A stretch of 64,000 nucleotides of DNA from Kiritimatiellia bacterium (GTDB lineage Bacteria; Verrucomicrobiota; Kiritimatiellia; RFP12; UBA1067). The position numbers and the translations under genes were made by a program. Shown in pieces: positions 321 to 26,217 of this stretch. The stretch is from contig JBJEWA010000110.1 in NCBI GenBank assembly GCA_051884805.1, positions 11,204 to 75,203 of the forward strand, given 5' to 3'. The notes beneath the pieces are model-generated. The model worked only from the letters and a program-made list of their open reading frames with translations, did not search any database and had not been told where the DNA came from. The stretch's first letter is position 1. Every line of letters starts with the position of its first letter.

Positions 321-3518
<3,198 letters not shown>

Positions 3519-3533
<15 letters not shown>

Positions 3534-3688
3534 CCGGCGGCGCGGTCGCGGTCCGGCTTGCGCCGTCCGAGCGGCTTGGCCAGCTGAGTACCCGCAGCGC
3601 CGCCGCCATCGCCTGACCGGCGGGCGGCGCGGTCGCGGCCCGGCTTGCGCCGTCCGAGCGGCTTGGCCAGCTGAGTACCCGCAGCGCC
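3519..3688. repeat. Tandem duplication (83 nt + 87 nt) that includes the last 12 nt and the stop codon of carB
   Basis: Unit 1 is 3519-3601 and unit 2 is 3602-3688. They differ by 1 substitution and a 4-nt indel. Both begin gccgccatcgccTGA and end in cccgcagcgcc. Confidence 0.9.
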
Positions 3689-3758
3689 CTCGCTGCGGGG
3701 CGTGGTAACCGCCAACGGGGGTGCGCCGGGTCCGGCCCCGGCGTGAGGTCACGCCGGG
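3678..3758. repeat. REP-like palindromic elements (type A 3678-3699, type B 3737-3758), opposite orientation to the copies at 30.2-30.6 kb
   Basis: CCCGCAGCG-CCCT-CGCTGCGGG and CCCGGCGTG-aggt-CACGCCGGG. With their flanks, both are reverse complements of elements repeated at 30160-30645. Confidence 0.85.
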
Positions 3759-3903
3759 TACTATGCAGGACGGCTTCCGAGGGAGCCTTCAGGCAAGCGG
3801 TGCGTCAGCCGCAGCGGTAGCGGAGTCCCTTGGCCAACCATCGGGGTGGCTACACCCCGCCGTTCAGTGACCCATTACCGCACGGTAGGCTTTTCCTCCA
3901 GTT

Positions 3904-3938
3904 GGGTAGTTGCAGTCCGGCTTCGGGTTTGGTAGGAT
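3904..3938 (+). promoter_or_regulatory. Conserved GGGTAGTTG-box promoter (leaderless type), copy 1
   Basis: GGGTAGTTG 3904-3912 (TTGCAG 3910-3915) and TAGGAT 3933-3938. The GTG start at 3946 is exactly 42 nt from the first G of the box, as in copies 2-4. Confidence 0.5.
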
Positions 3939-3945
3939 TGAACCC

Positions 3946-6900
3946 GTGAAGACGGAAAAGCTCGCGGTGGCCGCGCTGGCGGCCGGGTATCTGTTCGTGT
4001 CCGCTGCCGACGACCGGGGGCTGCCCGTGTTCGGCGACTCCTTCGACGCGGTCGGCACCTTCGCCGAGAACTGGGTGGCGAAGAACTGTATGCCGACCGG
4101 CGGCGTCGTCCGGATCCAGAACGGCGGCAGAATGCGCATGCGCCGCGCGACGCCGCTCGAGTTCGTCGCCGAGCTGGACGCGACGGTGACGGTCGCGAAG
4201 AGCCAGGAGCGGCGCGGTCAGAACTGGGGCGGCTTCTCCATCGAGGGCTTCCACTTCGAGGTGCAGCCGAGCGGGTACGGCTTCTGCGTGTGGCGCCTGC
4301 CCGAGGATCGGCATTCGAGCGGCAAGTACGCGAAGATTCCCGATTTCACGCCCGGCCGGAGCGTCCGTCTGCGTCTCGTGCGCAAGGCGGTGCCGGGCGG
4401 CGTCAAGTACACCTACCACCTGAACGGCGCTCTGGCGGGCGAGTTCATCTCGCCGGTGCCCAAGCCGGAGAAGGTCGTGAACGGCGTCGAGGAGTATTCC
4501 CCGCTCAGCATCGGCGCAACCTGCGTCGACATCGTCGCCGACAACTTCCTCCTCTCCACCGTACGCCATGACGACGATTCGCCGAACATGGTCTTCAACT
4601 CGGGCTTCGAGCACGGCGAGGACGGCGTGCCGACCTACTACGGGCTCTACGGCGCCTTCAACTACGCCGAGCGTCCCGCCGGCGAATACGAGACGCGCTA
4701 CCTGCAGCGCTTCGCCCAGGACGCGACCGAGCGGCACTCCGGCAAATACTCGCTGCGCGTCGCCGTCAACAACGCGTCTTCGGATCTCGTGATCGCGCCG
4801 TGGCAGACGGGTACGGTGAAGGGGCGTCCTGGCGTCTTCTCCGTCTGGATGAAGGCGTCGACAAACGGGCTGCCGGTCGAGATTGCGTTTTCGTCGAAGG
4901 GGGATGACGGCCGCAAGGTCGTGCAGGTGACGACGGAATGGGCGCGCTACGAGGTGACGCGCATGGAGCTCTCCGGCAAGGGCGTCTACTCGCCGGTGCG
5001 CATTCGGCCGCTCAGACCGCGCCAGCAGGACGCGGTGCTCTGGCTCGACGACCTGCAGGCCGAGATCGTCGCGCTGTCGCCGGAAGGCAAGTTCGATCCG
5101 GCGCAGACGTATGCGACGCCCTATAAGCCGAGCGAACTCGACCGGGACCGCTTAGGCGCGAAGCCCGTGCCCGAGCCGCCCGCGACGCTCGTCGCGAAGA
5201 AGCTCCCGCAGGGCGTGAAGCCGACGGCCGACCTCGATGCGTGGAAGCGGTACGCCTTCGCGGTGACCGACTTCTGGATGGACGCGAAGACGCCGCGGAT
5301 CCCGACTGCGGCCTATCTCGCGTGCGACGACGACCACCTCTATCTCGGCTTCCGCAACTTCCGCGAGAATCCCGCCTCGCTGACGCGCGCCCGCCAGCCG
5401 CACGATGCGATGATCGACCGTTTCGACGGGCTTGAACTCTTCTTCAAGCCGGATCCGGACGCGGGGCACTATCATCTCATGGCGGCGGCGAACGGCGACC
5501 GCTTCGACTGCTTCGCGAACGACATCAAGTGGAACGGCGAGTGGACGACGTCCGCGCGCGAGAACCGGGACAAGGGGGCGGTCGACTACCTCGTCACGAT
5601 TCCCTTCGCCGACTTTGCGCCGAACGGCTGCTCCGGACGCTGGCGCGTGAACCTCTGCCGCAACGACTGGTCGCGGCCGGGCGAGGCGGTGAACGCCTCG
5701 ACGGCGAAGCACCGCAAGGTCAACTACCGGCTGGAGGACCGGTGGCCGTACATCGAGCTTCCCTCCGGCGTCGCGGCGAAGTGGACGGGGAAAGCCGTCC
5801 GCCGCGCCGCGTCCGGTGCGGATGCCGTGCTCGGGCGCCTCGACTTCTACATGAACGAGCCGGAGGCCGCCTGGCGCGTCACCGGCGCGGACGGGCGGGT
5901 TGCCGTCGTGACGAAGCCGCTGGCCGAGATTCCGCTGGGAACGAACGCGGTCGTTTTCACGGCGAACGGCAAGACCTACTCCGACACGGTCGTGAAGCTG
6001 CCCTTCCGGCGGGGCGCGACGCAGGTGAACCGGTGGGTGCGCTGCGTCGTCAAGGACGGCGAGAAGGTGCTGTTCACCGGTCCCGGCATCGGCTCCACCG
6101 GATTCCTCGGTCGGAGGCCGGGCAAGCGGAAGTACGAGACGCTGATGGACATCGTCGCGCTGGGCGGTTTCGGACATTGCCTGGGCAACGTCCAGCCGCA
6201 CGGTCCGCTTGTGGACGAGCTGCGCATGCTGCTGGACGTCGTCCGTTCGCACCACATCCGCTACGCGAACTGGTGCGACTACGGCATGGCGCTCTGGGAG
6301 GGCTATCCGGCCGACCGGAAGCGGGACCCGAGCGCCACGGTGAAGCCCGCCGAGGTGGTGGCGCTGCTGCGTCCCTACGAGGACATCATCGTCACCAACC
6401 TTGCGATCGACGAGCCCGAGCTCTACAACACGAGCGAGTGGACCCGCAGCTGGCTCGAGTACGTAAAGTCGTTCTATCCCTACCTGCCCGTCCAGATGAA
6501 CAACTCCGTGCTGGGCATTCCGAGCCGGTTCGCGGACCTCAAGACCGACATTCTGATGCTCGACGACTACCTGACGAACCAGGAGGGCAGGACGGTTGAG
6601 TCGGTCGTCCGGCAGGTCGACGTGATGCAGGCGGTGCCAGGCGGCAAGCCCTGCTGGTTCTTCATCGTCGCGAACAACCCGACGCTGCATTACCGGCTCC
6701 CGACCTATGCCGAGCAGCTCGCCCAGAGCTGGGGCTGCATCTGCGCCGGCTGTTCGGGGCTCGCGTGGTACTGGGAGCTGCCGGTCGCGGAGGGCAGCTG
6801 GCGGGCGATGAAGCAGGTCAACCGCGAGGCGCAGGCGCTCAAGGAAGTCATCCTCTCCGAGGAGCTCTGCGACGCGGCGAAGGCCGACCAGCCCAAGTCG

Positions 6901-7149
6901 AAGCTCCGCCACCTGACGCGCACCCTGAACGGAGAGTGGTACGTCCTTTCCTGCAACCTCGACGCCGCGCCGCTGTCGGCCTCGTTCGCGTTGCCGGCGG
7001 CCGCGCCGAAGGACGGCACGGTCGAAGTGCTCTTCGAGCACCGGACGCTGCCCTTGAAGGACGGCGCCTTCCGCGACGACTACGCGGGGCACTCGCGTCA
7101 CCTCTACAAGCTCCGGCCGGCGACCGGGGCGGCGGAGCCGGGACGCTAA
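3946..7149 (+). CDS. Secreted multidomain carbohydrate-active protein (LamG/DUF1080-like, CBM4_9-like, CBM9-like, C-terminal TIM-barrel-like region)
   Basis: The ORF track calls 3910-7149. The signal peptide VKTEKLAVAALAAGYLFVSA begins at GTG 3946. CBM9-like stretch: HLYLGFRNF...LELFFKPD...WRVNLCRNDW. Confidence 0.8.
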   Translation: MKTEKLAVAALAAGYLFVSAADDRGLPVFGDSFDAVGTFAENWVAKNCMPTGGVVRIQNGGRMRMRRATPLEFVAELDATVTVAKSQERRGQNWGGFSIEGFHFEVQPSGYGFCVWRLPEDRHSSGKYAKIPDFTPGRSVRLRLVRKAVPGGVKYTYHLNGALAGEFISPVPKPEKVVNGVEEYSPLSIGATCVDIVADNFLLSTVRHDDDSPNMVFNSGFEHGEDGVPTYYGLYGAFNYAERPAGEYETRYLQRFAQDATERHSGKYSLRVAVNNASSDLVIAPWQTGTVKGRPGVFSVWMKASTNGLPVEIAFSSKGDDGRKVVQVTTEWARYEVTRMELSGKGVYSPVRIRPLRPRQQDAVLWLDDLQAEIVALSPEGKFDPAQTYATPYKPSELDRDRLGAKPVPEPPATLVAKKLPQGVKPTADLDAWKRYAFAVTDFWMDAKTPRIPTAAYLACDDDHLYLGFRNFRENPASLTRARQPHDAMIDRFDGLELFFKPDPDAGHYHLMAAANGDRFDCFANDIKWNGEWTTSARENRDKGAVDYLVTIPFADFAPNGCSGRWRVNLCRNDWSRPGEAVNASTAKHRKVNYRLEDRWPYIELPSGVAAKWTGKAVRRAASGADAVLGRLDFYMNEPEAAWRVTGADGRVAVVTKPLAEIPLGTNAVVFTANGKTYSDTVVKLPFRRGATQVNRWVRCVVKDGEKVLFTGPGIGSTGFLGRRPGKRKYETLMDIVALGGFGHCLGNVQPHGPLVDELRMLLDVVRSHHIRYANWCDYGMALWEGYPADRKRDPSATVKPAEVVALLRPYEDIIVTNLAIDEPELYNTSEWTRSWLEYVKSFYPYLPVQMNNSVLGIPSRFADLKTDILMLDDYLTNQEGRTVESVVRQVDVMQAVPGGKPCWFFIVANNPTLHYRLPTYAEQLAQSWGCICAGCSGLAWYWELPVAEGSWRAMKQVNREAQALKEVILSEELCDAAKADQPKSKLRHLTRTLNGEWYVLSCNLDAAPLSASFALPAAAPKDGTVEVLFEHRTLPLKDGAFRDDYAGHSRHLYKLRPATGAAEPGR

Positions 7150-7252
7150 CGCGACCCTAACGTACTTTTATTCCAATCGCAATCCGAATCTGACGGCGGG
7201 CTAACGCAAGCGGTGCATAATAATCGGCGGAATTTCTACTGGGGAACGGAGG

Positions 7253-7282
7253 CTTGCGCTTTCTGCCGGATTATGGGATAAT
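7253..7282 (+). promoter_or_regulatory. Putative promoter of the 7321 gene (leadered, SD-containing mRNA)
   Basis: TTGCGC 7253-7258, 18-nt spacer, TGgGATAAT 7274-7282. GAGGAG at 7306-7311 precedes ATG 7321. Confidence 0.4.
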
Positions 7283-7320
7283 GGCATAGGCGTAGGCGCT
7301 GACACGAGGAGAAGACCGGA

Positions 7321-7800
7321 ATGAAAAAGTTTGGCGCGTTGCTGGTTGCGGCCTTTGCGGCTGTTGCAGGGTTTCCGTATGTGTCGGAAACCCTGCCCAA
7401 TGGCGATACGCTCCTCAAGTTCACCACGGTCGGCGACGAGGTCTGGACGCCGATACGCGATTACGAGCGCGTGACGGTGCTCATTGTCGGCGGCGGTGGC
7501 GGCGGCGGCTACGGTTGCGCGGCCGGTGGTGGCGGCGGCGGCGAGGTCGTCGTCCTTTCCAACCAGACCTGTCTGGCCGGAAAGGAGTATGCGGCGGTGA
7601 ACGGCGACTATACGTTGAGGCGCAGGAGTCCGTGCCGCGACCAGGGCCTCCGGCTCGGCTGGATGACCGAAGCGGCGACCGACCTCGCCGGGAATCCGCG
7701 CGTCCTGAAGGACGGCAAGCCTGCGGTTGACGCGCTCCCCGACCTCGGCTGCTACGAGAACTGCATGGCCGTGCCGGGGGCGTGGCTCCTCCTGCGGTGA
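7321..7800 (+). CDS. Mini-paralog of the glycine-rich / beta-helix surface protein family (signal peptide + Gly-run N-module + conserved C-terminal module only)
   Basis: Signal peptide MKKFGALLVAAFAAVAG. VLIVGGGGGGG matches LLVVGGGGGGG of the next gene. The C-terminus DLAGNPRV...LPDLGCYEN...GAWLLLR matches the end of the 10439-12031 ORF. Confidence 0.75.
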   Translation: MKKFGALLVAAFAAVAGFPYVSETLPNGDTLLKFTTVGDEVWTPIRDYERVTVLIVGGGGGGGYGCAAGGGGGGEVVVLSNQTCLAGKEYAAVNGDYTLRRRSPCRDQGLRLGWMTEAATDLAGNPRVLKDGKPAVDALPDLGCYENCMAVPGAWLLLR

Positions 7801-7865
7801 GCCGGCAGGCCCATTTCGTTGTGTTGCGTCGGCAAGTCATGTACGGAAAACCAAAGACAGTCATC

Positions 7866-10640
7866 ATGATGAAGCGTCTGGCATTGGCGGGGTTGGCGGC
7901 GGCAGGTGCGGCGGTTGCCTGCGCGAACGAAACCAGGGTGCTTGCGAACGGCGAGATCGTCGAGATTTTCGACACGGTCGGGGATTTCGCCTGGACGGCG
8001 CCGTTCGATGCGAACGTCGAACTGCTCGTAGTGGGCGGCGGCGGTGGCGGCGGCTGCGGCGGTGGCGGCGGCGGTGGCGGCGGCGGGCAGGTCTATCACA
8101 CGACGGCCTTTCCCGTGCGGCAGGGCACGACGTATTTCGGCTCGGTCGGCGAAGGCGGCCGGGGCGGAACGAACGGCGGCGCCTCGGTCGGCCGCTGGCA
8201 GGGCGCCAACGGCGAGGATTCGGTCTTCGCCTCCATCACCTGCCCTGGCGGCGGCGGTGGCGGCGGTCATGCCGGGTCCGCCGTCATGACCGGCGTCGCC
8301 GGCGGCAACTCGGGCGGCGCGTCGTCGCCCGGCGGCACGAAGACTTCGCCCGACGCGACCGGCACGGACGATGCGGCAAACGGCTGGTACGGCGGGCACA
8401 AGGGTGGCGATTCCGTTCGTCTGGCTTATGCCGGCGGCGGTGGCGGCGCGATGGGCGAGGGCGGCTATGGCTTTGCGGACGCGGAGGGCCTCAACCATTC
8501 CGGCAACGGCGCCGACGGCTTCGAGTGCGCCATCACCGGCACGGCGGCCTTCTACGGCTGCGGTGGCGGCGGCGGCTGCAACGGCGACATCACCTCGCCC
8601 TATGCGCTGACGATCGCCGGCGGCGATGCGGGCAGCGGCAACGCCTCGGGCGGCGCCGGCGCGAAGGAGCACCGGGCGGCGGGTTCCGCCGCGACGGACG
8701 GCACCGGGTCGGGCGGCGGTGGCGGCGGCTGGCTGATGTCGTCGCCGACGGAAGGCGGCAAGGGCGGCAGCGGCATCGTCGTCATCCGCTATGTCGCGAC
8801 GGGGCCAGTCGTCAGGCTGACGGCCTACGACGGCTTTGCCGACGGGCAGGCGCACAGCGTGGCGGTCGAAGTCCTTTGGCCGGCTTCGGGAGCGCAGGTC
8901 GAGCATTCGACGGACGGCGAGACTTGGGGCGAACGCCCCGCGGCGTTCGCCACCTTCGGCAATCACGCCGGCTGGGTGCGCGTGACGGCGCCGGGAACGG
9001 AACTCGAGCCGTGCGTGCTGACGTATTCGATTCGCATCAAGGACCCGTCCGCCGAAAACGACGGCACCTTCCGCTTCGTGGCGCCCGCAGGCGAGTCGAC
9101 GCCGGAGGCGCCGTATGCGACCTGGGCGACCGCCGCGAACGACCTGGCGACGGCGCTGGCCGCCGCGGACGCCGCCGGCGATACCGTCCTCGTCGCGCCC
9201 GGCACGTATGCGCCGGACGCGGCGCTGCTCGTCCCCGCGGACGACGTCACCATCCGCAGCTGCCGTCCGGCGGACGGCGCGACGGACACGGCGAACACGA
9301 TTCTCGACGGTTCGCGGCTGACCGGCGTCTCGCTGCTCGGGAACGACGCGAAGCTTCGCCCGGTCGTCGCGGGCCTGACCTTCCGGAACTGCGCGACTGG
9401 TGCGGAGAAGGGCGGCGCGATCAACTTCAGCTCGGCCGGCGCCTACCGGATCCGCGACTGCGTCTTCGCGGACAACACCGTGACCGCGTCGGGCGGCGCG
9501 ATCTGCAGCACCAGTTCGAACGGGGGCCTGATCTCCGGCTGCGTGTTCTGCGGCAATTCCGCGACGAACACGGCCAACGACGCGAGCGGTGGCGGTGCGC
9601 TTTTCGCGTCGCAGAGCGCAAGCTCGTCGTCGAACTTCATCACGCTCCAGAACTGCACGTTCTCCAACAACTTCGCCGCCGGCGCCGGGCCGTACGGCGG
9701 CGCCGTCCAGGCCAGGCATTGCATCCGCATCTTCGACTGCCTCTTTGCGACGAACGGCCTGACGGTCCGGGCCAACACCGGACACGGCGGGTCGGCGAAC
9801 GTCGGGCAGTATTCGCTCGTTTCCAACACGACGTTTGTCGGCTGGCACAGCGCCACCTACGGCGTGGTGCTGCGGGTGGGCGAAATGAGCCATGTCGTCG
9901 ACTGCCGTTTCGAGCGCCTGTGGGGGTCGGGGTCCTACGGCGTCGTCCACCTGGGCGCGAAGACGGTCGCCGAGCGCTGCCGCTTCACGGGCTGCGAGCG
10001 CTTTGACATGTTCATGACCGAGGCTTCGGGTTCGGTGGTCCGCAACTGCCTGATGGGCGGCTGCACGGGCGGCAACTTCCTGCGCGCACACGGCAAGGCG
10101 ACGCTGCGCAGCGAGCACTGCACCTTTGCCGGCAACGCCAGCGGCTGCCGGATCTTCAACAATTCGGGCAGCGGCACGACCAACGTCGTCGTCAACTGCA
10201 TTTACGTGGGCAATGGCGGTCCGGGCAATTCCGCGAGCCATACCTGCTTCGTCACCAATTCGGCCGTTTCCCTGGCGCCGGCGGGGACGGCGGACAGCGG
10301 CGTCATCGTGACCACCGATCCCGGATTCCGCTCGGTGGCGCGCCAGGACTACCGGCTGAAGGCCGATTCCGTCGGCGTGGACGCTGGTCTGGCGCTCGAC
10401 TGGTCGGCGCAGGGCCGCGACCTGGTGCACGACGCGCGGTGGACGGGGGCGGCGCCGGACCTCGGCTGCTATGTGAACGCCAGCCCGGCGAGACCGATCC
10501 GTTCTACGGCGTCAGGGTCGTCGCGACGGAGGCCGAGAAGGCGGGCGAATGGGCGGATGCGACGACGGACGTCGCCGCGGCGATCGCGTCCTGCCTCGAC
10601 GGCGAGACGGTGCTCTTCAAGTCCGGGACCTATGCGCTGA
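7866..10640 (+). CDS. Glycine-rich + Pmp-like (GGA[ILV]/FxxN) parallel beta-helix surface protein; the reading frame probably leaves the true frame near 10480
   Basis: Start MMKRLALAGLAAAGAAVA at 7866. Long Gly-rich region ends in GSGIVVIRYV. Beta-helix repeats GGAINFSS, GGAICSTS, FADN, FCGN, FSNN. After PDLGCYV the frame reads Arg-rich nonsense. Confidence 0.7.
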   Translation: MMKRLALAGLAAAGAAVACANETRVLANGEIVEIFDTVGDFAWTAPFDANVELLVVGGGGGGGCGGGGGGGGGGQVYHTTAFPVRQGTTYFGSVGEGGRGGTNGGASVGRWQGANGEDSVFASITCPGGGGGGGHAGSAVMTGVAGGNSGGASSPGGTKTSPDATGTDDAANGWYGGHKGGDSVRLAYAGGGGGAMGEGGYGFADAEGLNHSGNGADGFECAITGTAAFYGCGGGGGCNGDITSPYALTIAGGDAGSGNASGGAGAKEHRAAGSAATDGTGSGGGGGGWLMSSPTEGGKGGSGIVVIRYVATGPVVRLTAYDGFADGQAHSVAVEVLWPASGAQVEHSTDGETWGERPAAFATFGNHAGWVRVTAPGTELEPCVLTYSIRIKDPSAENDGTFRFVAPAGESTPEAPYATWATAANDLATALAAADAAGDTVLVAPGTYAPDAALLVPADDVTIRSCRPADGATDTANTILDGSRLTGVSLLGNDAKLRPVVAGLTFRNCATGAEKGGAINFSSAGAYRIRDCVFADNTVTASGGAICSTSSNGGLISGCVFCGNSATNTANDASGGGALFASQSASSSSNFITLQNCTFSNNFAAGAGPYGGAVQARHCIRIFDCLFATNGLTVRANTGHGGSANVGQYSLVSNTTFVGWHSATYGVVLRVGEMSHVVDCRFERLWGSGSYGVVHLGAKTVAERCRFTGCERFDMFMTEASGSVVRNCLMGGCTGGNFLRAHGKATLRSEHCTFAGNASGCRIFNNSGSGTTNVVVNCIYVGNGGPGNSASHTCFVTNSAVSLAPAGTADSGVIVTTDPGFRSVARQDYRLKADSVGVDAGLALDWSAQGRDLVHDARWTGAAPDLGCYVNASPARPIRSTASGSSRRRPRRRANGRMRRRTSPRRSRPASTARRCSSSPGPMR

Positions 10641-12031
10641 CGGCGCCGCTCGCGCTCGACGACCGCTCGCTGCTGCTGCGGGCGGACGTCCCCGGCGCGG
10701 TCGTCTTCGACGCCCGGGACGCCGGACGTTGCGTGGACGCGACGCTTGCGGGCGGCAACCTCACGCTGACCCTCGACGGGTTCGTCTTCCGGAACGGCTT
10801 CTCGGGGCTTGACTATTCGGACGCCAACCATCAGGCCTGCGGCGGCGGGCTCTATCTCAAGTGCCCGGACCAGACGAGCCGCATCGTCTGCCGGAACTGT
10901 CGCGTCGAGCGCTGCCGCACGGTCTACGACTGGTCGAACGGGCTGTCGCAGAATTATGCCCGCGGCGCCGGCGCGTACGCCTACGGCAGCTGCACCTTCG
11001 AGAACTGCACCTTCGACTCGTGCGTGGCGACGAACGGCATTGGCGGCGGCGTCTGCACCGGCGCCGGCATCACGACGTCGGAACGGGGCTTGGGTCCAGT
11101 CTTCGCGGGCTGCACGATCACCAACTGCCAGTCCGTCGGAATGGGCGGCGTGAGCGGCCCCGGTGCGCATGCCGCGGGCATGCACAACGACAACCACTGC
11201 TGGATCGAGAACTGCGTGTTTGCCGACAACGCCGCGATCGTCACGAACGGTTCGGGCTATGCGGGCGGACTTCAGCTCGGCACCGGCGGGGTGGTCGTCA
11301 ATTCGGCCTTTGTCGGCAACAAGACGGCCCATTACGGCGGCGCCGTCTATCTGCCCGTCGGCGGCATGATCTCGAACTGCACGTTCCGCGGGAACTCGGG
11401 CAACTTCGGTGCCCTTTTCGGCGGCTCCGAGACGACGAAGATCCGCAATTGCGCGTTCGTGGACGAAGGCAGCACGGTCTACTTCACGACCGGGGCCGCT
11501 CCGGAGTTCCGGAACTGTCTCTTTGCCAGCCCGGGTCGCGTGGCGTTGGCCCTGCATCAGAATGCGGGCGTCGCCCTCGCCGAGAACTGCACCTTCGCCG
11601 ACTGCGGCACGGCGGTCTACCTCGGGTCGTCGGATCAGCGGGCCACGCTCGTCAACTGCCTTTTCGCGAACAACGCGGAGGACTTCGCCACGGCCAAGCT
11701 GACGTTTGCGGCGCCTCCCCTTGCGCTGACGAACTGCTTCTTCGCGGCGTATCCTGCGGTCGGCTACACCGCCGAGGGCTGCGTGCTCGGCGCCAACGCG
11801 CGTTTCCGCGCTGCGGCGCGCGGCGACTATTCGCTCCGGCACGGTTCGCGCTGCCGCGACCGGGCGAAGCTCCTGGACTGGATGACGTCCGCCGGCGCGA
11901 TCGACCTCGCGGGCAATCCGCGGGTCGTGACCGAAGCCAAGCCGCTCGCGGAGAATCCCGCCGCCCTGCCCGACATCGGCTGCTACGAGAACCTCGACGT
12001 CGCTCAGGGCTTCCTGCTGCTGGTGCGGTAG
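10439..12031 (+). CDS. Pmp-like beta-helix segment with the family C-terminal tail; no signal peptide of its own, probably a continuation of the upstream ORF across a -1 frame change
   Basis: FYGVRVVATEAEKAGEWADATTDVAAAIASCLDGETVLFKSGTYAL parallels the start of the mid-domain of the upstream ORF. Motifs GGGLYL, GGAVYL, FRNG, FADN, FVGN, FRGN, FANN. Ends LPDIGCYENLDVAQGFLLLVR. Confidence 0.6.
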   Translation: MDGGGAGPRLLCERQPGETDPFYGVRVVATEAEKAGEWADATTDVAAAIASCLDGETVLFKSGTYALTAPLALDDRSLLLRADVPGAVVFDARDAGRCVDATLAGGNLTLTLDGFVFRNGFSGLDYSDANHQACGGGLYLKCPDQTSRIVCRNCRVERCRTVYDWSNGLSQNYARGAGAYAYGSCTFENCTFDSCVATNGIGGGVCTGAGITTSERGLGPVFAGCTITNCQSVGMGGVSGPGAHAAGMHNDNHCWIENCVFADNAAIVTNGSGYAGGLQLGTGGVVVNSAFVGNKTAHYGGAVYLPVGGMISNCTFRGNSGNFGALFGGSETTKIRNCAFVDEGSTVYFTTGAAPEFRNCLFASPGRVALALHQNAGVALAENCTFADCGTAVYLGSSDQRATLVNCLFANNAEDFATAKLTFAAPPLALTNCFFAAYPAVGYTAEGCVLGANARFRAAARGDYSLRHGSRCRDRAKLLDWMTSAGAIDLAGNPRVVTEAKPLAENPAALPDIGCYENLDVAQGFLLLVR

Positions 12032-12044
12032 CCGTCCGCCGCCC

Positions 12045-12080
12045 GGGTAGTTGCCGCGTCGCGAGCCGATTCGGTATAAT
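12045..12080 (+). promoter_or_regulatory. Conserved GGGTAGTTG-box promoter (leaderless type), copy 2
   Basis: GGGTAGTTG 12045-12053 (TTGCCG 12051-12056), 18-nt spacer, TATAAT 12075-12080. ATG 12087 is 7 nt after the last T of the -10, so the predicted TSS falls on the start codon. Confidence 0.6.
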
Positions 12081-12086
12081 ACGGCC

Positions 12087-17252: not shown

Positions 17253-17282
17253 CGGTGCGCGCGCTCCGTCCCGCCGCCGGTC

Positions 17283-17318
17283 GGGTAGTTGCCGCGGTTG
17301 TCTCCATTTCGGTATAAT
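17283..17318 (+). promoter_or_regulatory. Conserved GGGTAGTTG-box promoter (leaderless type), copy 3
   Basis: GGGTAGTTG 17283-17291 (TTGCCG 17289-17294), 18-nt spacer, TATAAT 17313-17318, ATG 17325. Geometry is identical to copy 2. Confidence 0.6.
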
Positions 17319-17324
17319 CCCGGC

Positions 17325-19670
17325 ATGCGCGCGAAGTCATTGTCGGTTTTCTGCCTGTTTCTCGCCGGAACGGCGCAGGCGTCGTTCATTTCGGTTCCAG
17401 GGGGGCGGAACGCGGCGTTCGAGACGGCGTGCTTCGTCCGGACGGTGACGAACCGCGCGGCGGTCGTGCGGGCGGTCTGGCGCACGACGGGGCTGGGCGT
17501 CTACGAGGCGTTCGTGAACGGTGCGCGGAGCGGGACGGACGTGCTCAAGCCCGGCTTCACCTCGCGCACGAAATGCCGGCAGGTGACGACCGAGGACGTG
17601 ACGGCGCTCGTGAAGCGCGAGGCGGGGGCGGTCAACGTCCTCTCGGCCTGGGTGACCTCCGGCTGGTGGCGCGACGCCATCATGGCGACGCAGGACCGGA
17701 CGAGCGCCTTCTGGGGCGAACTTGAACTCGCCTTTGCGGACGGCTCGTCCGCGACCGTCGTGACGGACGCCGCATGGCGCGCGGCATACGCGGGACCGGT
17801 GACGGAGGCGTCGATCTACACCGGCGAGGACTACGACGCGCGCGCGGACGTCGCCTGGATGACGACGGGCGCGGTCAGTTGGCCGGCCGCCGTCACCAAC
17901 GGGGAGTTTCGCGGCGAACTGCGCCCGATGGGCAAGGCGCGGGTCGTAGCGCGCGAGGACCTGGCGCTCGCGCCGCAGCGGGCGTACGTCTGGCTGGGAA
18001 CGCAGCACGAGGCGACGGACCGCTTCGGCGCGGTGTTCGTCCGCCGCGAATGTGCGGACGGGGAGGCCGTCTGGCTCAAGGGGTCCCCGGCGATGCGCGA
18101 AACGCTGGTCGTCGATTTCGGGCAGAACCACGCGGGCGTCCCCGAGTTCGAGTTCGAGGCGGAGCGCGGCGTGACGCTCACGTGCCTGCCGGGCGAGATG
18201 CTGAACGACGGCGAGGGCATCCGCAGCCGTGGCAACGACGGCCCGGGCGGATCGGTCTATCGTGCGAACGTCTGCCGTCAGGGCGGCGGGCGCATCGCCG
18301 AGATCCGCTATCGCTTCGCGGGCGGCGGTGTCGAGACGTACCGTCCGCGGTTCAGCTTCTTCGGCTACCGCTACCTGCAGCTTTCGGCGACGGGTCCGGT
18401 GAAGATTCGCCGCGTGCGCTCGATTCCGCTGTCGTCAATCGCGCAGGCGGACGAGACCCTGACCATCGAGACCGGCAATCCGGCGGTGAACCGCCTCGTC
18501 CGGAACGCCCGCTGGGGGATGCTCTCCAACTACCTCTCCGTTCCGACCGACTGTCCCCAGCGCAACGAGCGGCTGGGCTGGACGGCCGACACGCAGGTCT
18601 TTTCCGGCGCCGGGGCCTACCTTGCCGACACCTGCGGCTTCCTGCGCAAGTGGATGCGGGACGTCGCCGACTCGCAGCGGAAGGACGGCGCCATTCCCTC
18701 CGTCGCTCCGGAGGGGATGGGCGGCGGCTCGACCGGGCGCGTCGGCTGGGGCGACGCGGCGGTGATCGTGCCGTACCGGATGTGGCGGCACTTCGGACGC
18801 ACGGCGATCGTCGAGGAGTCGTGGCCGATGATGGAACGCTATCTCCAGTGGGTGTCGGCCCGCGAATACCGGACGTTCGAGAACGAGGGCCAGTTCGCGG
18901 ACTGGCTGTCCTTCGAGGACTACATGACGATTGACCTGCCGGCGGACTGGATGAATCAGCCCGAGATCAAGGCGAATGTCTTCGCCTACTGGAACTACCT
19001 CGGCGGCTGCTACTGGCTGTGGGACGCGCGGATGATGCGGGAGATGGCCGCCGCGATCGGGAAGGACGCGGCGAAGTACGCGGCGGAGGAGACGCGTGCG
19101 CTCGCGTACCTGCGCGGCAACTTCCTCGCCGACGGCGACCTGCTGCCGTTCATGCGCAAGATGCAGACGCCGCAGCTCTTTGCGATGAAGCTCGGGCTCT
19201 TCGCCGACGCGGCGAAGCGCCGAAACTGCCGCGACCGGCTGCTCAGGAACTTTGCGGACAACGGCAACCGGCTCAAGACCGGCTTTCTCGGCACCTCGAT
19301 TCTGCTGGAGACGCTTTCGGAGGAGATGGACGCGCCCGAAATGGCGTACAGCCTCCTGCTGCAGCGCGACTTCCCGGGCTGGCTCTATTCTGTCGACCAG
19401 GGGGCGACGACGATCTGGGAGCGGTGGAACAGCTACACCCGGGAGCAGGGCTTCGGCCCGGTCGGGATGAACAGCTTCAACCACTACGCCTACGGGGCGG
19501 TCGTCGAGTGGATCGCCTCGACCGTCGCGGGATTCCGCCGCGATCCGGAGCGTCCGGGGAAGTTTCTCGTGAAGCCGGTGAAGGACCGGCGCCTCGGCTG
19601 GGTCAAGGCAACGTACCGGACGCCGTCCGGCGAGGTGCTGGTCAGCGAATGGCGGGAACCGGCGCGGTGA
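17325..19670 (+). CDS. Alpha-L-rhamnosidase-like glycoside hydrolase (GH78)
   Basis: Signal peptide MRAKSLSVFCLFLAGTAQA. PTDCPQRNERLGWTADTQVF matches the GH78 DCPQR(D/N)ERLGWTGD signature. Confidence 0.88.
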   Translation: MRAKSLSVFCLFLAGTAQASFISVPGGRNAAFETACFVRTVTNRAAVVRAVWRTTGLGVYEAFVNGARSGTDVLKPGFTSRTKCRQVTTEDVTALVKREAGAVNVLSAWVTSGWWRDAIMATQDRTSAFWGELELAFADGSSATVVTDAAWRAAYAGPVTEASIYTGEDYDARADVAWMTTGAVSWPAAVTNGEFRGELRPMGKARVVAREDLALAPQRAYVWLGTQHEATDRFGAVFVRRECADGEAVWLKGSPAMRETLVVDFGQNHAGVPEFEFEAERGVTLTCLPGEMLNDGEGIRSRGNDGPGGSVYRANVCRQGGGRIAEIRYRFAGGGVETYRPRFSFFGYRYLQLSATGPVKIRRVRSIPLSSIAQADETLTIETGNPAVNRLVRNARWGMLSNYLSVPTDCPQRNERLGWTADTQVFSGAGAYLADTCGFLRKWMRDVADSQRKDGAIPSVAPEGMGGGSTGRVGWGDAAVIVPYRMWRHFGRTAIVEESWPMMERYLQWVSAREYRTFENEGQFADWLSFEDYMTIDLPADWMNQPEIKANVFAYWNYLGGCYWLWDARMMREMAAAIGKDAAKYAAEETRALAYLRGNFLADGDLLPFMRKMQTPQLFAMKLGLFADAAKRRNCRDRLLRNFADNGNRLKTGFLGTSILLETLSEEMDAPEMAYSLLLQRDFPGWLYSVDQGATTIWERWNSYTREQGFGPVGMNSFNHYAYGAVVEWIASTVAGFRRDPERPGKFLVKPVKDRRLGWVKATYRTPSGEVLVSEWREPAR

Positions 19671-21403
19671 TTGCGGGGCTGCTCCTCGCGGTGGCGACCG
19701 TCGCCACCGCGCCCCAGATCAACTCGGGCGAGCTGGTGGACCGAGGCGTCGTGCGCTTCACGGGCGTCGTGTCGTCCGTCATGCGCGACGACACCGACGA
19801 GAACTACAATTGGATGATCGTCCGCACGCCGCAGGGCAAGGCCTGCGCGGCGGTGGCGGAGCGCATCTGGCCGATCGTCCGCCTCCGGGAGCTGTGCGAC
19901 GCGGAAGTCGAGCTGACCGGGTACGTGTGCCCGATGGTCAGCTGGCGCAAGTTCCTCGGCTGCCTCCTGGTCCTCGGCAGTGCGGACGCGCTGCGCGTGA
20001 TCAGGCCGGCGCCGGACGATCCGTTTGCGGGCGCGGCGCTGAAGACGGCTGCGGAGCCGCACCGGCAGACGGCCGTGGGGGCGGTGCTCGCGCGGACGTC
20101 GCGGCGCTTCTTCCTCCGCCGCACCGACGGCGAGTTCCTGCCGGTGACGCCGCTGGCGGGCGTGCCGATGCCGGCGGTCGGCACGGGCATCGCCGTGGCC
20201 GGGTTCGCCGACCGCGACAACCGCAACCTGCAGCTCGTCGAGGCCGTGTGGAAGCCGGCGCCGGAGGCCGCCGAGCCGCTTGAGCCCTGTGCGGCCGTGG
20301 GCATGGGGACGCTCTTCTGGGAGCACGGGCACCGGATGGCGAACACCAGCGCCTACGGACAGGCGATCTGCGTCGAGGGCAAGGTCGTCCGGACGGAGGC
20401 GGGCGGCCGGGTGTTCCGCCTGGCCGACGGCCGGGAAACCGTCGACGTCGATCTGTCAGGCTTCGGCGACGAGGTCCGGATGCCGGCGATCGGCGCGCGC
20501 GTCGAGGTTCAGGGCGTCTGCTACGCCGACTTCGAGAGCGACAAGTCGACCATCGTCTTTCCCCGCTTCCGCGGCTTCATCGTCATCCCCCGCGTCGCGG
20601 ATGACCTCCGCATCGTCGCGTCCGCGCCGTGGTGGACCGCCGAACGGCTGCTGGTTGTCGCCGCCGTGCTGCTTTTTCTCGTCGTCTTCTTCGTCGTCTG
20701 GTCCGTCCTGCTCCGGCGTCTCGCGGCGAAGCGCGCCCGCGAGCTCGCGGACGAGCGGATCGTGAGCGCCCGGGCCGAACTGCGGGTCGCGGAGCGCACG
20801 CGGCTCGCGGTCGAGCTGCACGATTCGCTCTCGCAGACCCTGACCGGCGTCGCGCTGCAGATCGATGCCGCGGAAAGCGCCCAGTCCGGGGGCGCGGCGC
20901 CGGACGCCTTCCTCGCGCGGGCGCGGCGGTTGCTCGACGCCTGCCGTCAGGAGCTGCGCGGCTGTCTCTGGGACTTGCGGGTCCGGACCTTCGACGAGCA
21001 GGATCTGACGGAGGCCATCGTCCGGAGCGTTTCGCCGCAGGTCGGCACGGCCGCGCTGACGGTCCGGTTCAACGTGCCGCGGGCGGAGCTCTCCGAGGAG
21101 AAGGTGCACGCGATCCTCAAGATCGTCCGCGAGCTGACGTCCAACGCGATGACCCACGGAAGGGCGACGCACGTGCGCGTGGCGGGCGAACGGCATGGCG
21201 ACGTCGTGACCTTCGCGGTGACGGACGACGGCGACGGATTCGATCCGGCGACGGCGCCGGGCCCGCAGGACGGGCATTTCGGGCTGCAGTGCGTCCGCGA
21301 GCGTCTCGGGGACTTCGACGGCGCGCTGTCCGTCGAGAGCGCTCCGGGCCGCGGAACGCGGGTCGTGGCGAAACTCAGGGTGAAGGATGCGGTGACGGAA
21401 TGA
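19649..21403 (+). CDS. Sensor histidine kinase (HisKA_3 / NarX-type) with periplasmic OB-fold-like repeats
   Basis: The start overlaps the GH78 stop (ATG 19649; alternative GTG 19667). TM segments AVIAGLLLAVATVA and LLVVAAVLLFLVVFFVVWSVLL. H-box LAVELHDSLSQTL. HATPase_c with DDGDGF and GLQCVRERL. Confidence 0.85.
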   Translation: MAGTGAVIAGLLLAVATVATAPQINSGELVDRGVVRFTGVVSSVMRDDTDENYNWMIVRTPQGKACAAVAERIWPIVRLRELCDAEVELTGYVCPMVSWRKFLGCLLVLGSADALRVIRPAPDDPFAGAALKTAAEPHRQTAVGAVLARTSRRFFLRRTDGEFLPVTPLAGVPMPAVGTGIAVAGFADRDNRNLQLVEAVWKPAPEAAEPLEPCAAVGMGTLFWEHGHRMANTSAYGQAICVEGKVVRTEAGGRVFRLADGRETVDVDLSGFGDEVRMPAIGARVEVQGVCYADFESDKSTIVFPRFRGFIVIPRVADDLRIVASAPWWTAERLLVVAAVLLFLVVFFVVWSVLLRRLAAKRARELADERIVSARAELRVAERTRLAVELHDSLSQTLTGVALQIDAAESAQSGGAAPDAFLARARRLLDACRQELRGCLWDLRVRTFDEQDLTEAIVRSVSPQVGTAALTVRFNVPRAELSEEKVHAILKIVRELTSNAMTHGRATHVRVAGERHGDVVTFAVTDDGDGFDPATAPGPQDGHFGLQCVRERLGDFDGALSVESAPGRGTRVVAKLRVKDAVTE

Positions 21404-22026
21404 AAAGCGGCAGAAAGATTCGGGTATTGCTGGCGGACGACCATCTGGTCGTGCGGATCGGGCTTTCGGACATCCTCTCCTTCGAGCCGGACATCGAGGT
21501 CGTCGGCGAGGCGTCGGACGGTGCGGAGGCGGTCCGGAAGGCGATGGCGCTCAAGCCGGACGTGGTCGTCATGGACCTCATGATGCCGAAGCTGGACGGG
21601 GCGGCGGCGACGGAGCAGATCCGCGCGGTCAACCCGGCGACGCGGATTCTCGTGCTGACGACGTTCGGCGGTTCCGAAGAGATGCGCCGGGCGCTGGCGG
21701 TCGGGGCGGCGGGCGCGCTCGTGAAGGGGGCTTCGAAGCCGGAGCTTCTCGGGGCGATCCGGCGGCTGGCCTCCGGCGGGACGGTGATCAGCCCGGAAAT
21801 CGCCCGTTCGCTCGAACTGCAGCCGGCGGCGGCGCTCTCGGACCGGCAGCTTGAGGTGCTGGGCTTGGCGGCGAAGGGCCTCAGCAACCGGGAGATCGCC
21901 GGACTGCTCGGCGTCTCGCTCGACTGCGTCAAGGAGCATCTGAAGCTCGTCTTCTCCCGCCTGGACGCCACGACGCGCACCGAGGCCGTGGCCATTGCCG
22001 TCGCCCGCGGGCTCATCCGGCTCTGA
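21400..22026 (+). CDS. NarL/LuxR-family response regulator
   Basis: ATGA overlap with the kinase stop. Receiver domain (LLADDH, VVVMDLMMPKLDG) plus a LuxR HTH (LSDRQLEVLGLAAKGLSNREIAGLLGVS). Confidence 0.93.
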   Translation: MKSGRKIRVLLADDHLVVRIGLSDILSFEPDIEVVGEASDGAEAVRKAMALKPDVVVMDLMMPKLDGAAATEQIRAVNPATRILVLTTFGGSEEMRRALAVGAAGALVKGASKPELLGAIRRLASGGTVISPEIARSLELQPAAALSDRQLEVLGLAAKGLSNREIAGLLGVSLDCVKEHLKLVFSRLDATTRTEAVAIAVARGLIRL

Positions 22027-22037
22027 TTCCGCCACCT

Positions 22038-22073
22038 GGGTAGTTGTCCGGGTCGGGACGCATGCGCTATAAT
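22038..22073 (+). promoter_or_regulatory. Conserved GGGTAGTTG-box promoter (leaderless type), copy 4
   Basis: GGGTAGTTG 22038-22046 (TTGTCC 22044-22049), 18-nt spacer, TATAAT 22068-22073, ATG 22080. Confidence 0.6.
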
Positions 22074-22079
22074 GGGCGC

Positions 22080-25000
22080 ATGAACACGGGACTTTTCTGC
22101 AGGCGGGTGGTCGCGGCGGTGGCCGCAGCGTGGATGACGGGCGCCTTTGCCGCGGCGACGCGCGGCGAGGTCAGGCGCGGGACGGCGCAGGACCGGCTCG
22201 TCTCCTTCCGCGAATCCGGTTCCGTCGGCTACACGGTGACCGACCCGGCGGGGCCGTGCGAAATCTCCTATCGGTTCAGGGTGCTGGAGCGCAACCAGTC
22301 CAAGCAGGGCTATGCCTTCATGCTGCACCTCTACGGCGGCGACGCGTCCGCGCTCGTCAGCATGCGCGACGCGAAGACGCTCGAGTCCTACTTCTACCGC
22401 AACGGCAAGAAATGCGGCTACATCCGGCATACGGGCGACGCGGCGCATCCGGACGGCGCCTGGCACGAGGTCAGGGTCTCCGTGCGGGCGAAGACGATCG
22501 TCGTGACGCTGGACGGGCACGAGATCGGCAACGGCCAGCATTCCGGCTTCTGCCCCGTCGAGAGGTTCGACTTCTGGTCGTACGGACTCAAGACGGAGCT
22601 CGCGGACGTCACGCACCGTACGCTGGCGGTCGAAAAGCCCGTCCTGGTCGAGCGGCCGACTTACGCGCTCGAGCGCCTGCCGGACGACCTGACGGCGGCG
22701 AAGCTCGACCGGCCCTTTGACGCGAAGGTCGGCGGCATCATGTTCTGGGCGCGCTTCACCGGCGCGCACGGCAGGCTCTTTTCGCTTTGCCGCGGCAAGG
22801 AGACGGTCGTCCGCGCCGACGTCGGCGGCGAGGCGGGGAACCGCGCGAACGTCTGGGTGCGGCGGACGGACGACGAGAAAGGCCTCGTCTACACGCGTTC
22901 CTACCCGAACCGGAAGGGCGACTGGGTGCTGGTGACGCTGACCTGGAACGAGGACGGCGAGGCGAAGTACTTCATCAACACGCTGCCCTATCTCGTCTGC
23001 TTTAATCCCGGCCAGCGCATGCCCGACTTCCTCCACGCCGACGTGGACGGCGTCGACGGCATCGTCTTCCCCGAGCTCGGAAAGCGCGGCGCCGAGATCC
23101 GCCGGCTCAAGCTCTTCCACCGTCCGATCGCCAACACCGAGGTCTGGAACGAGTACCGTGCGTTCGTGCCGGTTGACATGGTCATGAACGAGACGATCGT
23201 GCCGGAAAACGAGCTGGCGTCCGTCACGCTGCAGGTCGGCCCGGCGGGGCTATACACCCGTCCCTGCCCCGTGCAGCTCGACGGTTTCCGCCCGGCCGAC
23301 AAGGTCGCGTTCGCTCTCGTCGTGCGCGACGGGCGCGGCGAGGTCCTCGCGACCGACCGCCAGGAGGTCGAGGTGGACGGCGCGGTCGATCTCAGGTTCC
23401 CCGCACGCGCGTACGCGAAGGGCAACTACACGCTTGAGGTGACGGTGAACGGCTTCTACCGCCGCACCTTCGGCTTCGCGGCCTTCACCTCCGACTACCG
23501 CCCCGACTGCTCGGCGGAGGACCGCGTGCGCGGCGAGCTCCTCTACCTGCGCGAGCCGCAGGCGGACGACGGGGATCTCCTGCGCCAGGGCGCGGTCTCG
23601 ATGCGCACGACGCCGCTTGGCCGTTATCTCGAATGCGGCGACGACCAGACCGACCGCATCTCGTTCGAGATCGGATTCCCGCCGGATGTCTGCGGCCAGC
23701 CCGTCGAGCTCGAGATCGAGTGGCCGGACGACAAGCCGCGCCTGGCGGGCTTCTACATGTACGCGCCGCAGGGCGCCAACCGCGACTACCTGCAGCAGGC
23801 GGTTTCGAGCGGCTATGAGATTCCGCTTTCGCGGCAGCTGCAGCGGTCGGTCTTCCTATTCTTCCCGGGCGTCACCAACTACCTCTTCGAGGCCCGCACG
23901 CTGGCGCCGCATATGCCTGCGGCGGTGAAGGCGGTCCGCGTCTACCGCGTGAAGGACGGGCTCCTGCCGGCCAACCGCATCGAGACGCCGCAGGGGATGC
24001 CGGGACGGCACTTCGGCTTCTACGACGAGGACCAGACGTTCCACAACAACCTCAACGCCCAGGCGATGGCCAGGAACGCGCCGTGCCGCGAGGCCTACCG
24101 GGCCAAGTATCCGACCGCCATCACCTGGGCGACGGACGAGCTTTACCGCTACTTCGACTACATCGGCATGGACACCGTCTCCGAACCGACCTGGCGCTAC
24201 CACGTCTCCTACTTCCCCCTTGAGGGGCAGACTGGCGCCGGCCTCTGGCCGGGACGCGACCTCGCGTGGATCTGGCGGGACTTCCCGAAGCACGGCAAGC
24301 GCTTCATCGCCTCGCTCAACTTCGGCAACCTGCCCGACGTCAAGTGGGCGGAAAAGATCGACGGCGACTACCTGGAGCGCGGCATGGAGATGCTCGACCG
24401 GTCGGGCGACCCGATTCCCGGCTATCTCGAAGGCCCGCGCACGGCGAATCCGTGCCATCCGAAGTGCGTGGAGCTCTTCCTGAACTACCTGCGCGATCCC
24501 GTGCGCCGCTACGCGAAGTCGGGCCTCGCAGGCATCCAGTACGAGATCGTGACCTGGGGCACGTGGGGCAAGCTCGAAAACGGCTACGACGACTACACGA
24601 CCGGCAAGTTCGCGAAGGAGACGGGGATCCGCGTCCCGGAGCAGCTCAGGGAGCGCTACGCCTATCTCACCGGCGAGCAGCGCGAGGCGTGGCTCAAGTG
24701 GCGCGCCGGGCAGGTCACGAACCTCGTGCGGGCGATGCGCACGATGCTGGACGAAATCAACCCCGAACTCGTCCTCGAACTGATCGTCCCGGCCTCCGGC
24801 CGCTACGTCGAGCGCGGAATCGACGTCGACGCGATCAAGCGGATTCCGAACGTCGTCTTCTGCGTGACGCGCAACGCCACGCACTACCGCCACGACATGC
24901 ACTGGTCGAAGCCGGAATCGACGCTCAACGAGGACCTCTACGACTTCGCCAAGGCCGACGCGGCGGATCTCGCCGTCAACGGCGCGGTCGCCTCGGTGCG

Positions 25001-26204: not shown

Positions 26205-26217
26205 GGATCCAGTCACC

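Follow-up and report, generated by a model that had tools for sequence, protein, structure and literature searches.

A nine-nucleotide promoter box, GGGTAGTTG, occurs four times in a 64-kb stretch of a Kiritimatiellia genome (the whole stretch analysed, hereafter the window). It is a candidate operator half-site for a dimeric NarL-family response regulator with a D-C-V-K recognition helix, which would activate about eight promoters of glycan-degrading enzymes. We assign this reading a probability of roughly 0.65, the regulator encoded in the window being the most probable reader of the box and a paralogue on contig C67 a possible one. It is carried by the motif and its geometry, its rarity, the TG missing from the promoters, the co-located two-component system, and an association between recognition helix and operator in related genomes. 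The window is part of contig C110 in an assembly of 2.86 Mb (65.8% G+C, 142 contigs), here called G000.

The + strand of the window carries exactly four copies of GGGTAGTTG, at 3904, 12045, 17283 and 22038, and the other strand carries none. The distance from the first G of the box to the start codon was exactly 42 nt in every case (GTG at 3946, ATG at 12087, 17325 and 22080). The chance expectation was 0.04 copies, and none of 100 dinucleotide-preserving shuffles reached four. In copies 2-4, a TATAAT hexamer (12075-12080, 17313-17318 and 22068-22073) was located 21 nt past the box and ended 6 nt before the ATG; it stood 18 nt past TTGCCG, TTGCCG and TTGTCC, respectively, which are weak -35 elements. 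The -10 hexamer of copy 1 was TAGGAT (3933-3938), 20 nt past the box and ending 7 nt before the GTG, and this copy alone among the four had a TG-extended -10 (tttGGTAGGAT). An independent, generic sigma-70 scan of positions 3000-22900 returned copies 2-4 as its only promoters, and no credible terminators between genes were found over the same range. With a gap of just 6-7 nt between -10 and start codon, there is no room for a Shine-Dalgarno sequence at the four cassettes, and this geometry predicts a transcript start at or next to the start codon. The N-termini at all four starts read as signal peptides (e.g. MRSIAFMAAALALSAAAAPQ and MRAKSLSVFCLFLAGTAQA). On all these points, namely the four positions with their 42-nt distance, the hexamers, the absence of a Shine-Dalgarno sequence, the predicted transcript start and the signal peptides, a preliminary description of the same DNA was borne out. 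The cassettes are composed as follows.

3894-3948, + strand: promoter cassette 1, with degenerate distal half-site TCCTCC (3894-3899), GGGTAG plus TTG (3904-3912), TAGGAT (3933-3938) and GTG (3946)
12035-12089, + strand: promoter cassette 2, with TCCGCC (12035-12040), GGGTAGTTG (12045-12053), TTGCCG (12051-12056), TATAAT without TG (12075-12080) and ATG (12087)
17273-17327, + strand: promoter cassette 3, at the head of the GH78-kinase-regulator operon, with GCCGCC (17273-17278), GGGTAGTTG (17283-17291), TATAAT (17313-17318) and ATG (17325)
22028-22082, + strand: promoter cassette 4, beginning 2 nt past the regulator stop codon, with TCCGCC (22028-22033), GGGTAGTTG (22038-22046), TATAAT (22068-22073) and ATG (22080)

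No similarity was detectable among the four downstream proteins, and therefore the cassettes are not copies brought along by gene duplication. The 20-21-nt sequences linking box to -10 were also unrelated among the four copies. Taken together, unrelated spacers and unrelated proteins indicate constraint on short elements, not copied DNA.

The genome-wide motif search proposed in the preliminary description gave a divided result: the box 9-mer had 12 copies, of which 6 stood in promoter geometry, whereas the other 6 had no -10 hexamer at the right distance. When the whole assembly was scanned with a 28-nt matrix built around the box, 8 sites scored 25-32 and the runner-up scored 19.6. Four were the window copies on C110, so that half of the sites fall within 18 kb around the regulator gene; the remaining four, two on C57 and one each on C13 and C32, were as follows.

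C57:25360: box site GGGTGGTTG
C57:28658: box site GGGTAGTAG
C13:4673: box site, full palindrome
C32, reverse strand: box site

When GGGTA(G/A/T) followed by TAnA(A/C)T was searched for, the spacing was most often 24 nt (6 sites) or 22-23 nt (5 sites), and most other distances had 0-1 sites. The rigid 42 nt to the start codon holds for the four window copies but not for the whole genome, since the C32 box promoter has a leader of ~110 nt and at C57:25360 the gene of glycoside hydrolase family 106 (GH106) starts 96 nt beyond the ATG at +42, in the same frame. As two of the eight sites are not leaderless, the conserved distance is that from box to -10, not that from box to ATG; the 42-nt distance results from the leaderless habit of the genome described below. 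The ATG at +42 on C57 itself opens a 30-codon frame ending at TAG (C57:25402-25494, locus L160:402-494), which is either a leaderless upstream small reading frame or what remains of a longer signal sequence after a recent mutation to a stop codon.

The putatively box-regulated genes include two unrelated alpha-L-rhamnosidases, the GH78 enzyme of the window and the GH106 enzyme on C57. Among the further products are GH116-like, GH127-like, GHL10-like, GH28-like, GH2-like, beta-helix and DUF4886/DUF6259 proteins and two without family match. To judge from the family names, this target set points to a rhamnose-containing, pectin-like glycan. The eight sites agree with the earlier proposal that the box is the shared regulator site of a small, putative glycan-enzyme regulon.

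The site on C13 was found to be a complete palindrome, CTACCC-ATTC-GGGTAG, and that on C32 a near-complete one, CTACTC-AGAT-GGGTAG. GGGTAG is, on this sequence evidence, the putative promoter-proximal half of a 16-bp 6-N4-6 palindrome with the consensus CTACCC-N4-GGGTAG. The earlier view of the box as an extended -35 is replaced by that of an operator half followed by TTG, the latter serving as a weak -35. The end of GGGTAG lies 24 nt from the -10 in this genome (23 nt at site 1 and C13), and the centre of the palindrome would be at about -44.5 if the transcript starts at the A of the ATG.

Palindromes of this kind were also observed in related genomes. TACCC-N4-GGGTA was counted 16 times in G014 (2 for the backwards-read control), 14 in G016 (0), 11 in G012 (0) and 6 in G035 (0), and (C/T/A)TACCC-N4-GGGTA(G/A/T) was found 22-24 nt before a -10 hexamer in ~25 fetched promoters of relatives. 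The distance from palindrome end to -10 was 22 nt in G012, G014 and G035, and 23-24 nt in G016, G022 and G027; for lower-GC relatives, promoter calling used relaxed thresholds for G+C at third codon positions. At G027:C309, one palindrome serves both promoters of a divergent pair, and at G028:C37 it is displaced upstream by one helical turn, to 34 nt from the -10. The exact box with a -10, searched for in 60 relatives, was found only at G018:C194, which adjoins a kinase paralogue, and at G027:C71, where the match proved to be an ordinary TTGACA promoter. Of the 36 genomes that belong to the same genus, 34 were without it. Because the exact 9-mer is nearly absent from relatives, it is regarded as species-specific. 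Two other repeated sequences were noticed: G016 contains 13 copies of TACCCC(TA/CG)GGGGTA, which probably serve another regulator as operator or belong to a repeat family, and a single TACCCTTGCGGGTA was seen in each of at least 14 genomes of the genus, where it is probably part of a conserved gene or RNA.

The short distance between -10 and start codon is a general feature of this genome. TAnAAT followed by an ATG opening at least 100 codons was found at 6, 7, 8 and 9 nt in 50, 60, 33 and 41 cases, respectively (184 in total, genome-wide), compared with about 1-6 cases at each of the other close spacings and about 5 per position elsewhere. A TAnAAT promoter preceded the start codon by 6-9 nt in 156 of 1332 confidently coding frames. 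Shine-Dalgarno-like words also peaked 6-9 nt ahead of other starts, showing that both start modes coexist. It is reasonable to regard the leaderless layout, itself predicted from the -10 spacing, as describing the organism and not, as had been supposed, the box gene family. At the window sites the predicted leaderless first codon is ATG in three cases and GTG at 3946; a GTG start makes a weaker case for leaderless translation. In the literature, no report of leaderless expression in Kiritimatiellia was found; the one paper with both terms names the class just in a table of anti-Shine-Dalgarno types. The present in-silico evidence adds that leaderless expression from TG-extended -10 promoters may be common there.

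When the leaderless promoters were aligned on the -10, T was present in 78% at -5, T in 89% at -3 and G in 88% at -2, giving TnTGnTATAAT, and no -35 signal was detected in the aligned TAnAAT promoters. This TG was missing from 6 or 7 of the 8 box promoters, which read cggTATAAT or gcgcTATAAT where the consensus is tGgTATAAT. Among clean leaderless TAnAAT promoters, 26 of 187 were without TG, mostly with a TTGAC -35 instead. The box promoters look like standard promoters minus a key contact, and their missing TG-extended -10 is therefore the pattern expected of activator-dependent promoters. A k-mer enrichment among promoters without TG was uninformative, the loosely defined TAnnnT matches being mostly noise.

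A candidate for the activator is encoded behind copy 3. As the preliminary description had proposed, this copy heads an operon containing a two-component pair, whose genes overlap by 4 nt each (GTGA between the GH78 and kinase genes, ATGA between the kinase and regulator genes).

17325-19670, + strand: secreted GH78 alpha-L-rhamnosidase (Bac_rhamnosid6H, E = 6.7e-96), first gene of the two-component operon
19667-21403, + strand: membrane histidine kinase with a ~330-residue periplasmic domain, then HisKA_3 and HATPase_c
21400-22026, + strand: NarL/FixJ-family response regulator with receiver (Response_reg) and GerE helix-turn-helix, recognition helix GVSLDCVKEHLKLVF; candidate box binder

The closest solved structures to the regulator were VraR, DesR and NarL, and it is no NarL equivalog (121 bits against a cut-off of 250). 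Its predicted phosphoacceptor is Asp58. The kinase family is expanded in the genus, with up to 19 paralogues in one genome and 8 in the present one, and a regulator gene adjoins each of them. To relate recognition helix to operator, a table of 29 loci chosen from similarity hits was compiled, 24 from relatives and 5 from this genome. The D-C-V-K helix was present in the regulators of the window, C67, G016:C43, G022:C378, G027:C309 and G028:C37, those of the relatives being 51-60% identical to the window regulator. All four D-C-V-K loci of relatives had TACCC-N4-GGGTA ahead of their own kinase operon, compared with none of 23 paralogous loci with other helices for the exact motif (Fisher p = 6e-4). 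The loci with other helices carried different palindromes at the same promoter position (CCCTGT-TT-ACAGGG, GTCCT-AA-AGGAC and CACCCCC...GGGGGGTG). Other paralogue loci of this genome carried G-rich boxes in the same register, namely GGGT(T/G)AT on C40 and GGGGGATG on C74.

C40:876-906, 3198-3228 and 14948-14989: G-rich boxes CGGGTGATT, CGGGTTATG and TGGGTTATT at paralogous two-component loci
C74:26817-26847 and 35002-35032: G-rich boxes TGGGGGATG and GGGGGGATG at paralogous two-component loci

This pattern is the one expected from autoregulated paralogous systems with diverged operators, and it points to the window regulator or its C67 paralogue. Regulators of the C40 type (helix ETVKIH or ESVKIH) were also considered as readers of the 22-nt-class palindromes in G012 and G014. 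This was not supported, because the orthologous kinase operons were without such a palindrome. On C40 itself (12185-12230), CTACCCGAACGGGTTA lies 24 nt before TAGAAT, ahead of another two-component operon, with an ETVKIH helix in its regulator; this is a possible ninth site and a possible sign of a regulatory cascade between paralogous systems.

The best reading of these data is a regulon for a rhamnose-containing glycan that would be both autoregulated and activator-dependent. The partner kinase would respond to a signal in the periplasm, which is probably a piece of a rhamnose-containing, pectin-like glycan. Once phosphorylated, the regulator would bind beside the weak -35 (TTGCCG, 18-nt spacer) and recruit RNA polymerase to promoters whose -10 lacks the TG extension that the ordinary promoters of this genome depend on. 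Transcription would begin at the start codon or within 1 nt of it, giving leaderless mRNAs as predicted for many genes of the organism, and the membership of the regulator's own operon would provide positive autoregulation. Binding, activation instead of repression, the signal and the transcript start are predictions.

Several observations weigh against this reading. The paralogues in the helix-operator table are not independent samples, and this genome has two D-C-V-K regulators, on C110 and C67, the promoter region of the latter being cut off by the contig end. G012, G014 and G035 have the most full palindromes (at 22 nt; assemblies 59-88% complete), yet no regulator with a D-C-V-K helix was detected in them; either the palindrome is recognised by a different regulator in these genomes, or their incomplete assemblies do not contain the gene. 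The distal half in the six C110 and C57 sites is a conserved, non-palindromic (T/G)CC(G/T)CC in place of the palindromic partner. The palindrome promoters of relatives mostly keep the TG-extended -10, and activator dependence is thus less evident there.

Some of these points bear on other explanations. It is unlikely, though deserving of some weight, that the two-component system lies close to the box only by coincidence and that some other protein recognises the box, such as a one-component regulator from another part of the genome. The 6-16 full palindromes in each of the three genomes without a detected D-C-V-K regulator would fit this, as would the four sites on other contigs with no regulator nearby. 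Against it stand the helix-operator association (4 of 4 informative relatives versus 0 of 23), the palindrome ahead of the kinase operon itself in D-C-V-K relatives, and the window site that heads the regulator's operon. Slightly less probable is that the box is a repression operator, at which the same or another regulator bound at -52 to -34 blocks RNA polymerase until the glycan signal arrives. NarL-family regulators are capable of repressing, and most palindrome promoters of relatives, with their TG-extended -10, could fire unaided. But the box promoters of this genome, with no TG and only the TTG of a -35, look intrinsically weak, the palindrome at G028:C37, 34 nt from the -10, is too far upstream to occlude polymerase, and a centre at -44.5 is a typical activator position (PMC9314961).

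We consider it very improbable that RNA polymerase itself reads the box as an extended -35 or upstream element, through a housekeeping or alternative sigma factor or the alpha subunit, with no dedicated regulator. Its TTG does stand at a plausible -35 position with an 18-nt spacer, and the -10 is of the housekeeping type. However, at 24 nt from the -10, GGGTAG is too distant to act as a -35; palindromes occur at C13, at C32 and in relatives, with both orientations served at the divergent pair; only 8 sites exist in the genome; and the near-absence of the exact box with a -10 from the genus is unlike a polymerase-level signal. A promoter for an extracytoplasmic function (ECF) or other alternative sigma factor was rejected, as the -10 is TATAAT as in ordinary promoters, GGGTAG is 24 nt away, and the element is palindromic and bidirectional in relatives. 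It is hardly credible that a single promoter segment was recently copied and that the cassettes are its remnants, with no shared regulation. The (T/G)CCGCC upstream of the box and the cgg before the -10 are common to several copies, and site 1 shares a 23-nt stretch, in permuted order, with C57:32975; yet the spacers and the downstream proteins are unrelated, and the same operator recurs at the same distance in other species.

The shared stretch consists of ATTACCGCAC and GGTAGGCTTTTCC (window 3874-3896), just upstream of box 1, which occur in swapped order at C57:32975-33000, where they precede a degenerate box (GGGTGGTGG-N20-TATAAT). As a pair they were found at no other place in the genome. 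They may be a leftover of promoter copying or a second binding site. In the C138:77000 region (reverse strand; box-like site at reverse-complement position 4980), CGGTAGTGG-N21-TATAAT-N7-ATG with a TG-extended -10 precedes a gene for a predicted FGGY-type sugar kinase. From its sequence this kinase resembles rhamnulokinase, and the site is a weak, unscored candidate for the rhamnose-related regulon. It was also observed that ~40 contig ends start with one of two 53-nt sequence versions, both ending ...CCGCCGCCACTGCCCACTTACTTCTTCAATCGAC (e.g. C110:1-53, outside the window, C32, C67 and C122), with genomic sequence beginning directly after. These 53 nt look non-biological, as if an adapter or linker had remained in the assembly, and they shorten the upstream regions of the C32 box site and the C67 kinase operon.

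The remaining genes downstream of the window cassettes are listed below.

3946-12031, + strand: predicted transcription unit 1, four genes, no promoter or credible terminator inside
3946-7149, + strand: secreted 1067-residue protein without family match, first gene of unit 1
7321-7800, + strand: small glycine-rich-domain protein, unit 1
7782-10640, + strand: Gly_rich_2 and beta-helix protein, unit 1
10439-12031 (frame; start not fixed), + strand: beta-helix (pectate-lyase fold) protein, unit 1
12087-17252, + strand: secreted 1721-residue protein with CBM4_9 and GH116-type domains, downstream of cassette 2
22080-30135, + strand: predicted transcription unit 4, two genes (22080-26204 and 26218-30135)
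22080-26204, + strand: secreted 1374-residue GHL10-like protein, unit 4
26218-30135, + strand: 1305-residue protein with GH28-like and GH2-like domains, unit 4

The periplasmic sensor domain of the window kinase had no match in Pfam, NCBIfam or PDB sequences. The frames of homologous kinases in relatives open 330-470 nt further upstream, which suggests that those kinases carry ~110-130 additional N-terminal residues. The N-terminus of the window kinase is a signal-like segment overlapping the GH78 stop, and its sensor domain may be shortened. A pattern search of other genomes' contigs with this kinase caught only the generic kinase motif, in Streptomyces and unrelated taxa, and returned no orthologues.

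Kiritimatiellia abound in guts, rumen and anoxic sediments as glycan degraders with hundreds of secreted enzymes, and hardly any have been cultured. An operator, a candidate regulator and eight target promoters make up a testable regulon, which places proteins of unknown function in a single substrate response, the substrate probably being a rhamnose-rich pectic glycan. The pairing of helix and operator across paralogues suggests that the regulons of the many sister systems might be readable from genomes alone. A broader picture can be offered tentatively, and we hold it to be rather less likely than the regulon itself: gut and rumen Kiritimatiellia might run their glycan blocks via a large, fast-diversifying two-component family, each member having a private palindromic operator in a single register (22-24 nt upstream of the -10) at promoters that are otherwise uniform and mostly leaderless. 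A few helix residues would set the operator, pairing D-C-V-K with TACCC/GGGTA and other helices with CCCTGT/ACAGGG, GTCCT/AGGAC and CCCCC/GGGGG. Operators with a half-site only, like the window sites, would represent a second binding mode, in which one subunit would be held by polymerase or by a partner reading CCGCC. If this is true, enzymes could be matched to their signals from sequence alone by reading such a regulator code.

The system can be compared with NarL, whose heptamer is TACYYMT. In Escherichia coli, NarL can activate a promoter from one site alone when this site is centred at -44.5, 32 bp upstream of the -10 (PMC9314961). The 7-2-7 site studied there (an ogt1052 derivative) shares with the system proposed here a NarL/FixJ regulator with a HisKA_3 kinase, an inverted repeat with a half-site starting TACCC, a centre at about -44.5 and a distance of ~32 bp from the -10. 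The arms differ in spacing, TACCC-N6-GGGTA in NarL and TACCC-N4-GGGTA here, where most sites keep the proximal half only. The signal is nitrate for NarL and probably a glycan here, and the transcripts here are predicted to be leaderless. The 6-N4-6 geometry is that of the ComA box of Bacillus subtilis, TTGCGG-N4-CCGCAA (PMC4797271). ComA is an activator of the NarL family (tetrahelical helix-turn-helix), and it also accepts non-palindromic half-site arrangements (PMC4797271); the likeness is one of geometry only, as the half-site sequence is unrelated and ComA uses a quorum signal and an extra third element.

It has been reported that two-component genes adjoin clusters of carbohydrate-active enzymes in Kiritimatiellia, where operators and promoters were not defined (bioRxiv 10.64898/2026.10.06.756941, which surveys 898 genomes of the class), and no operators defined for Kiritimatiellia were found in the searchable literature. 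Polysaccharide utilisation loci of Bacteroidota are regulated by hybrid two-component systems, SusR and pairs of ECF sigma and anti-sigma factors. They resemble the present loci in having many paralogous sensor-regulator pairs, each beside a block of secreted glycan enzymes and each presumably tuned to one glycan. They differ in that classical two-protein systems are found here instead of hybrid kinases with AraC outputs, with no SusC/SusD genes. Leaderless genes are common in Actinomycetota and Deinococcota, and there, as here, the -10 lies 6-9 nt before the start, a Shine-Dalgarno sequence is absent and many genes per genome are concerned; the phylum is a different one, the promoters here are TG-extended at the -10, and the starts are predicted from sequence. 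By analogy with these systems, the mechanism would be of a known kind, with a response-regulator operator and a weak promoter overlapping in the -35 region, and a leaderless output that is generic for the genome.

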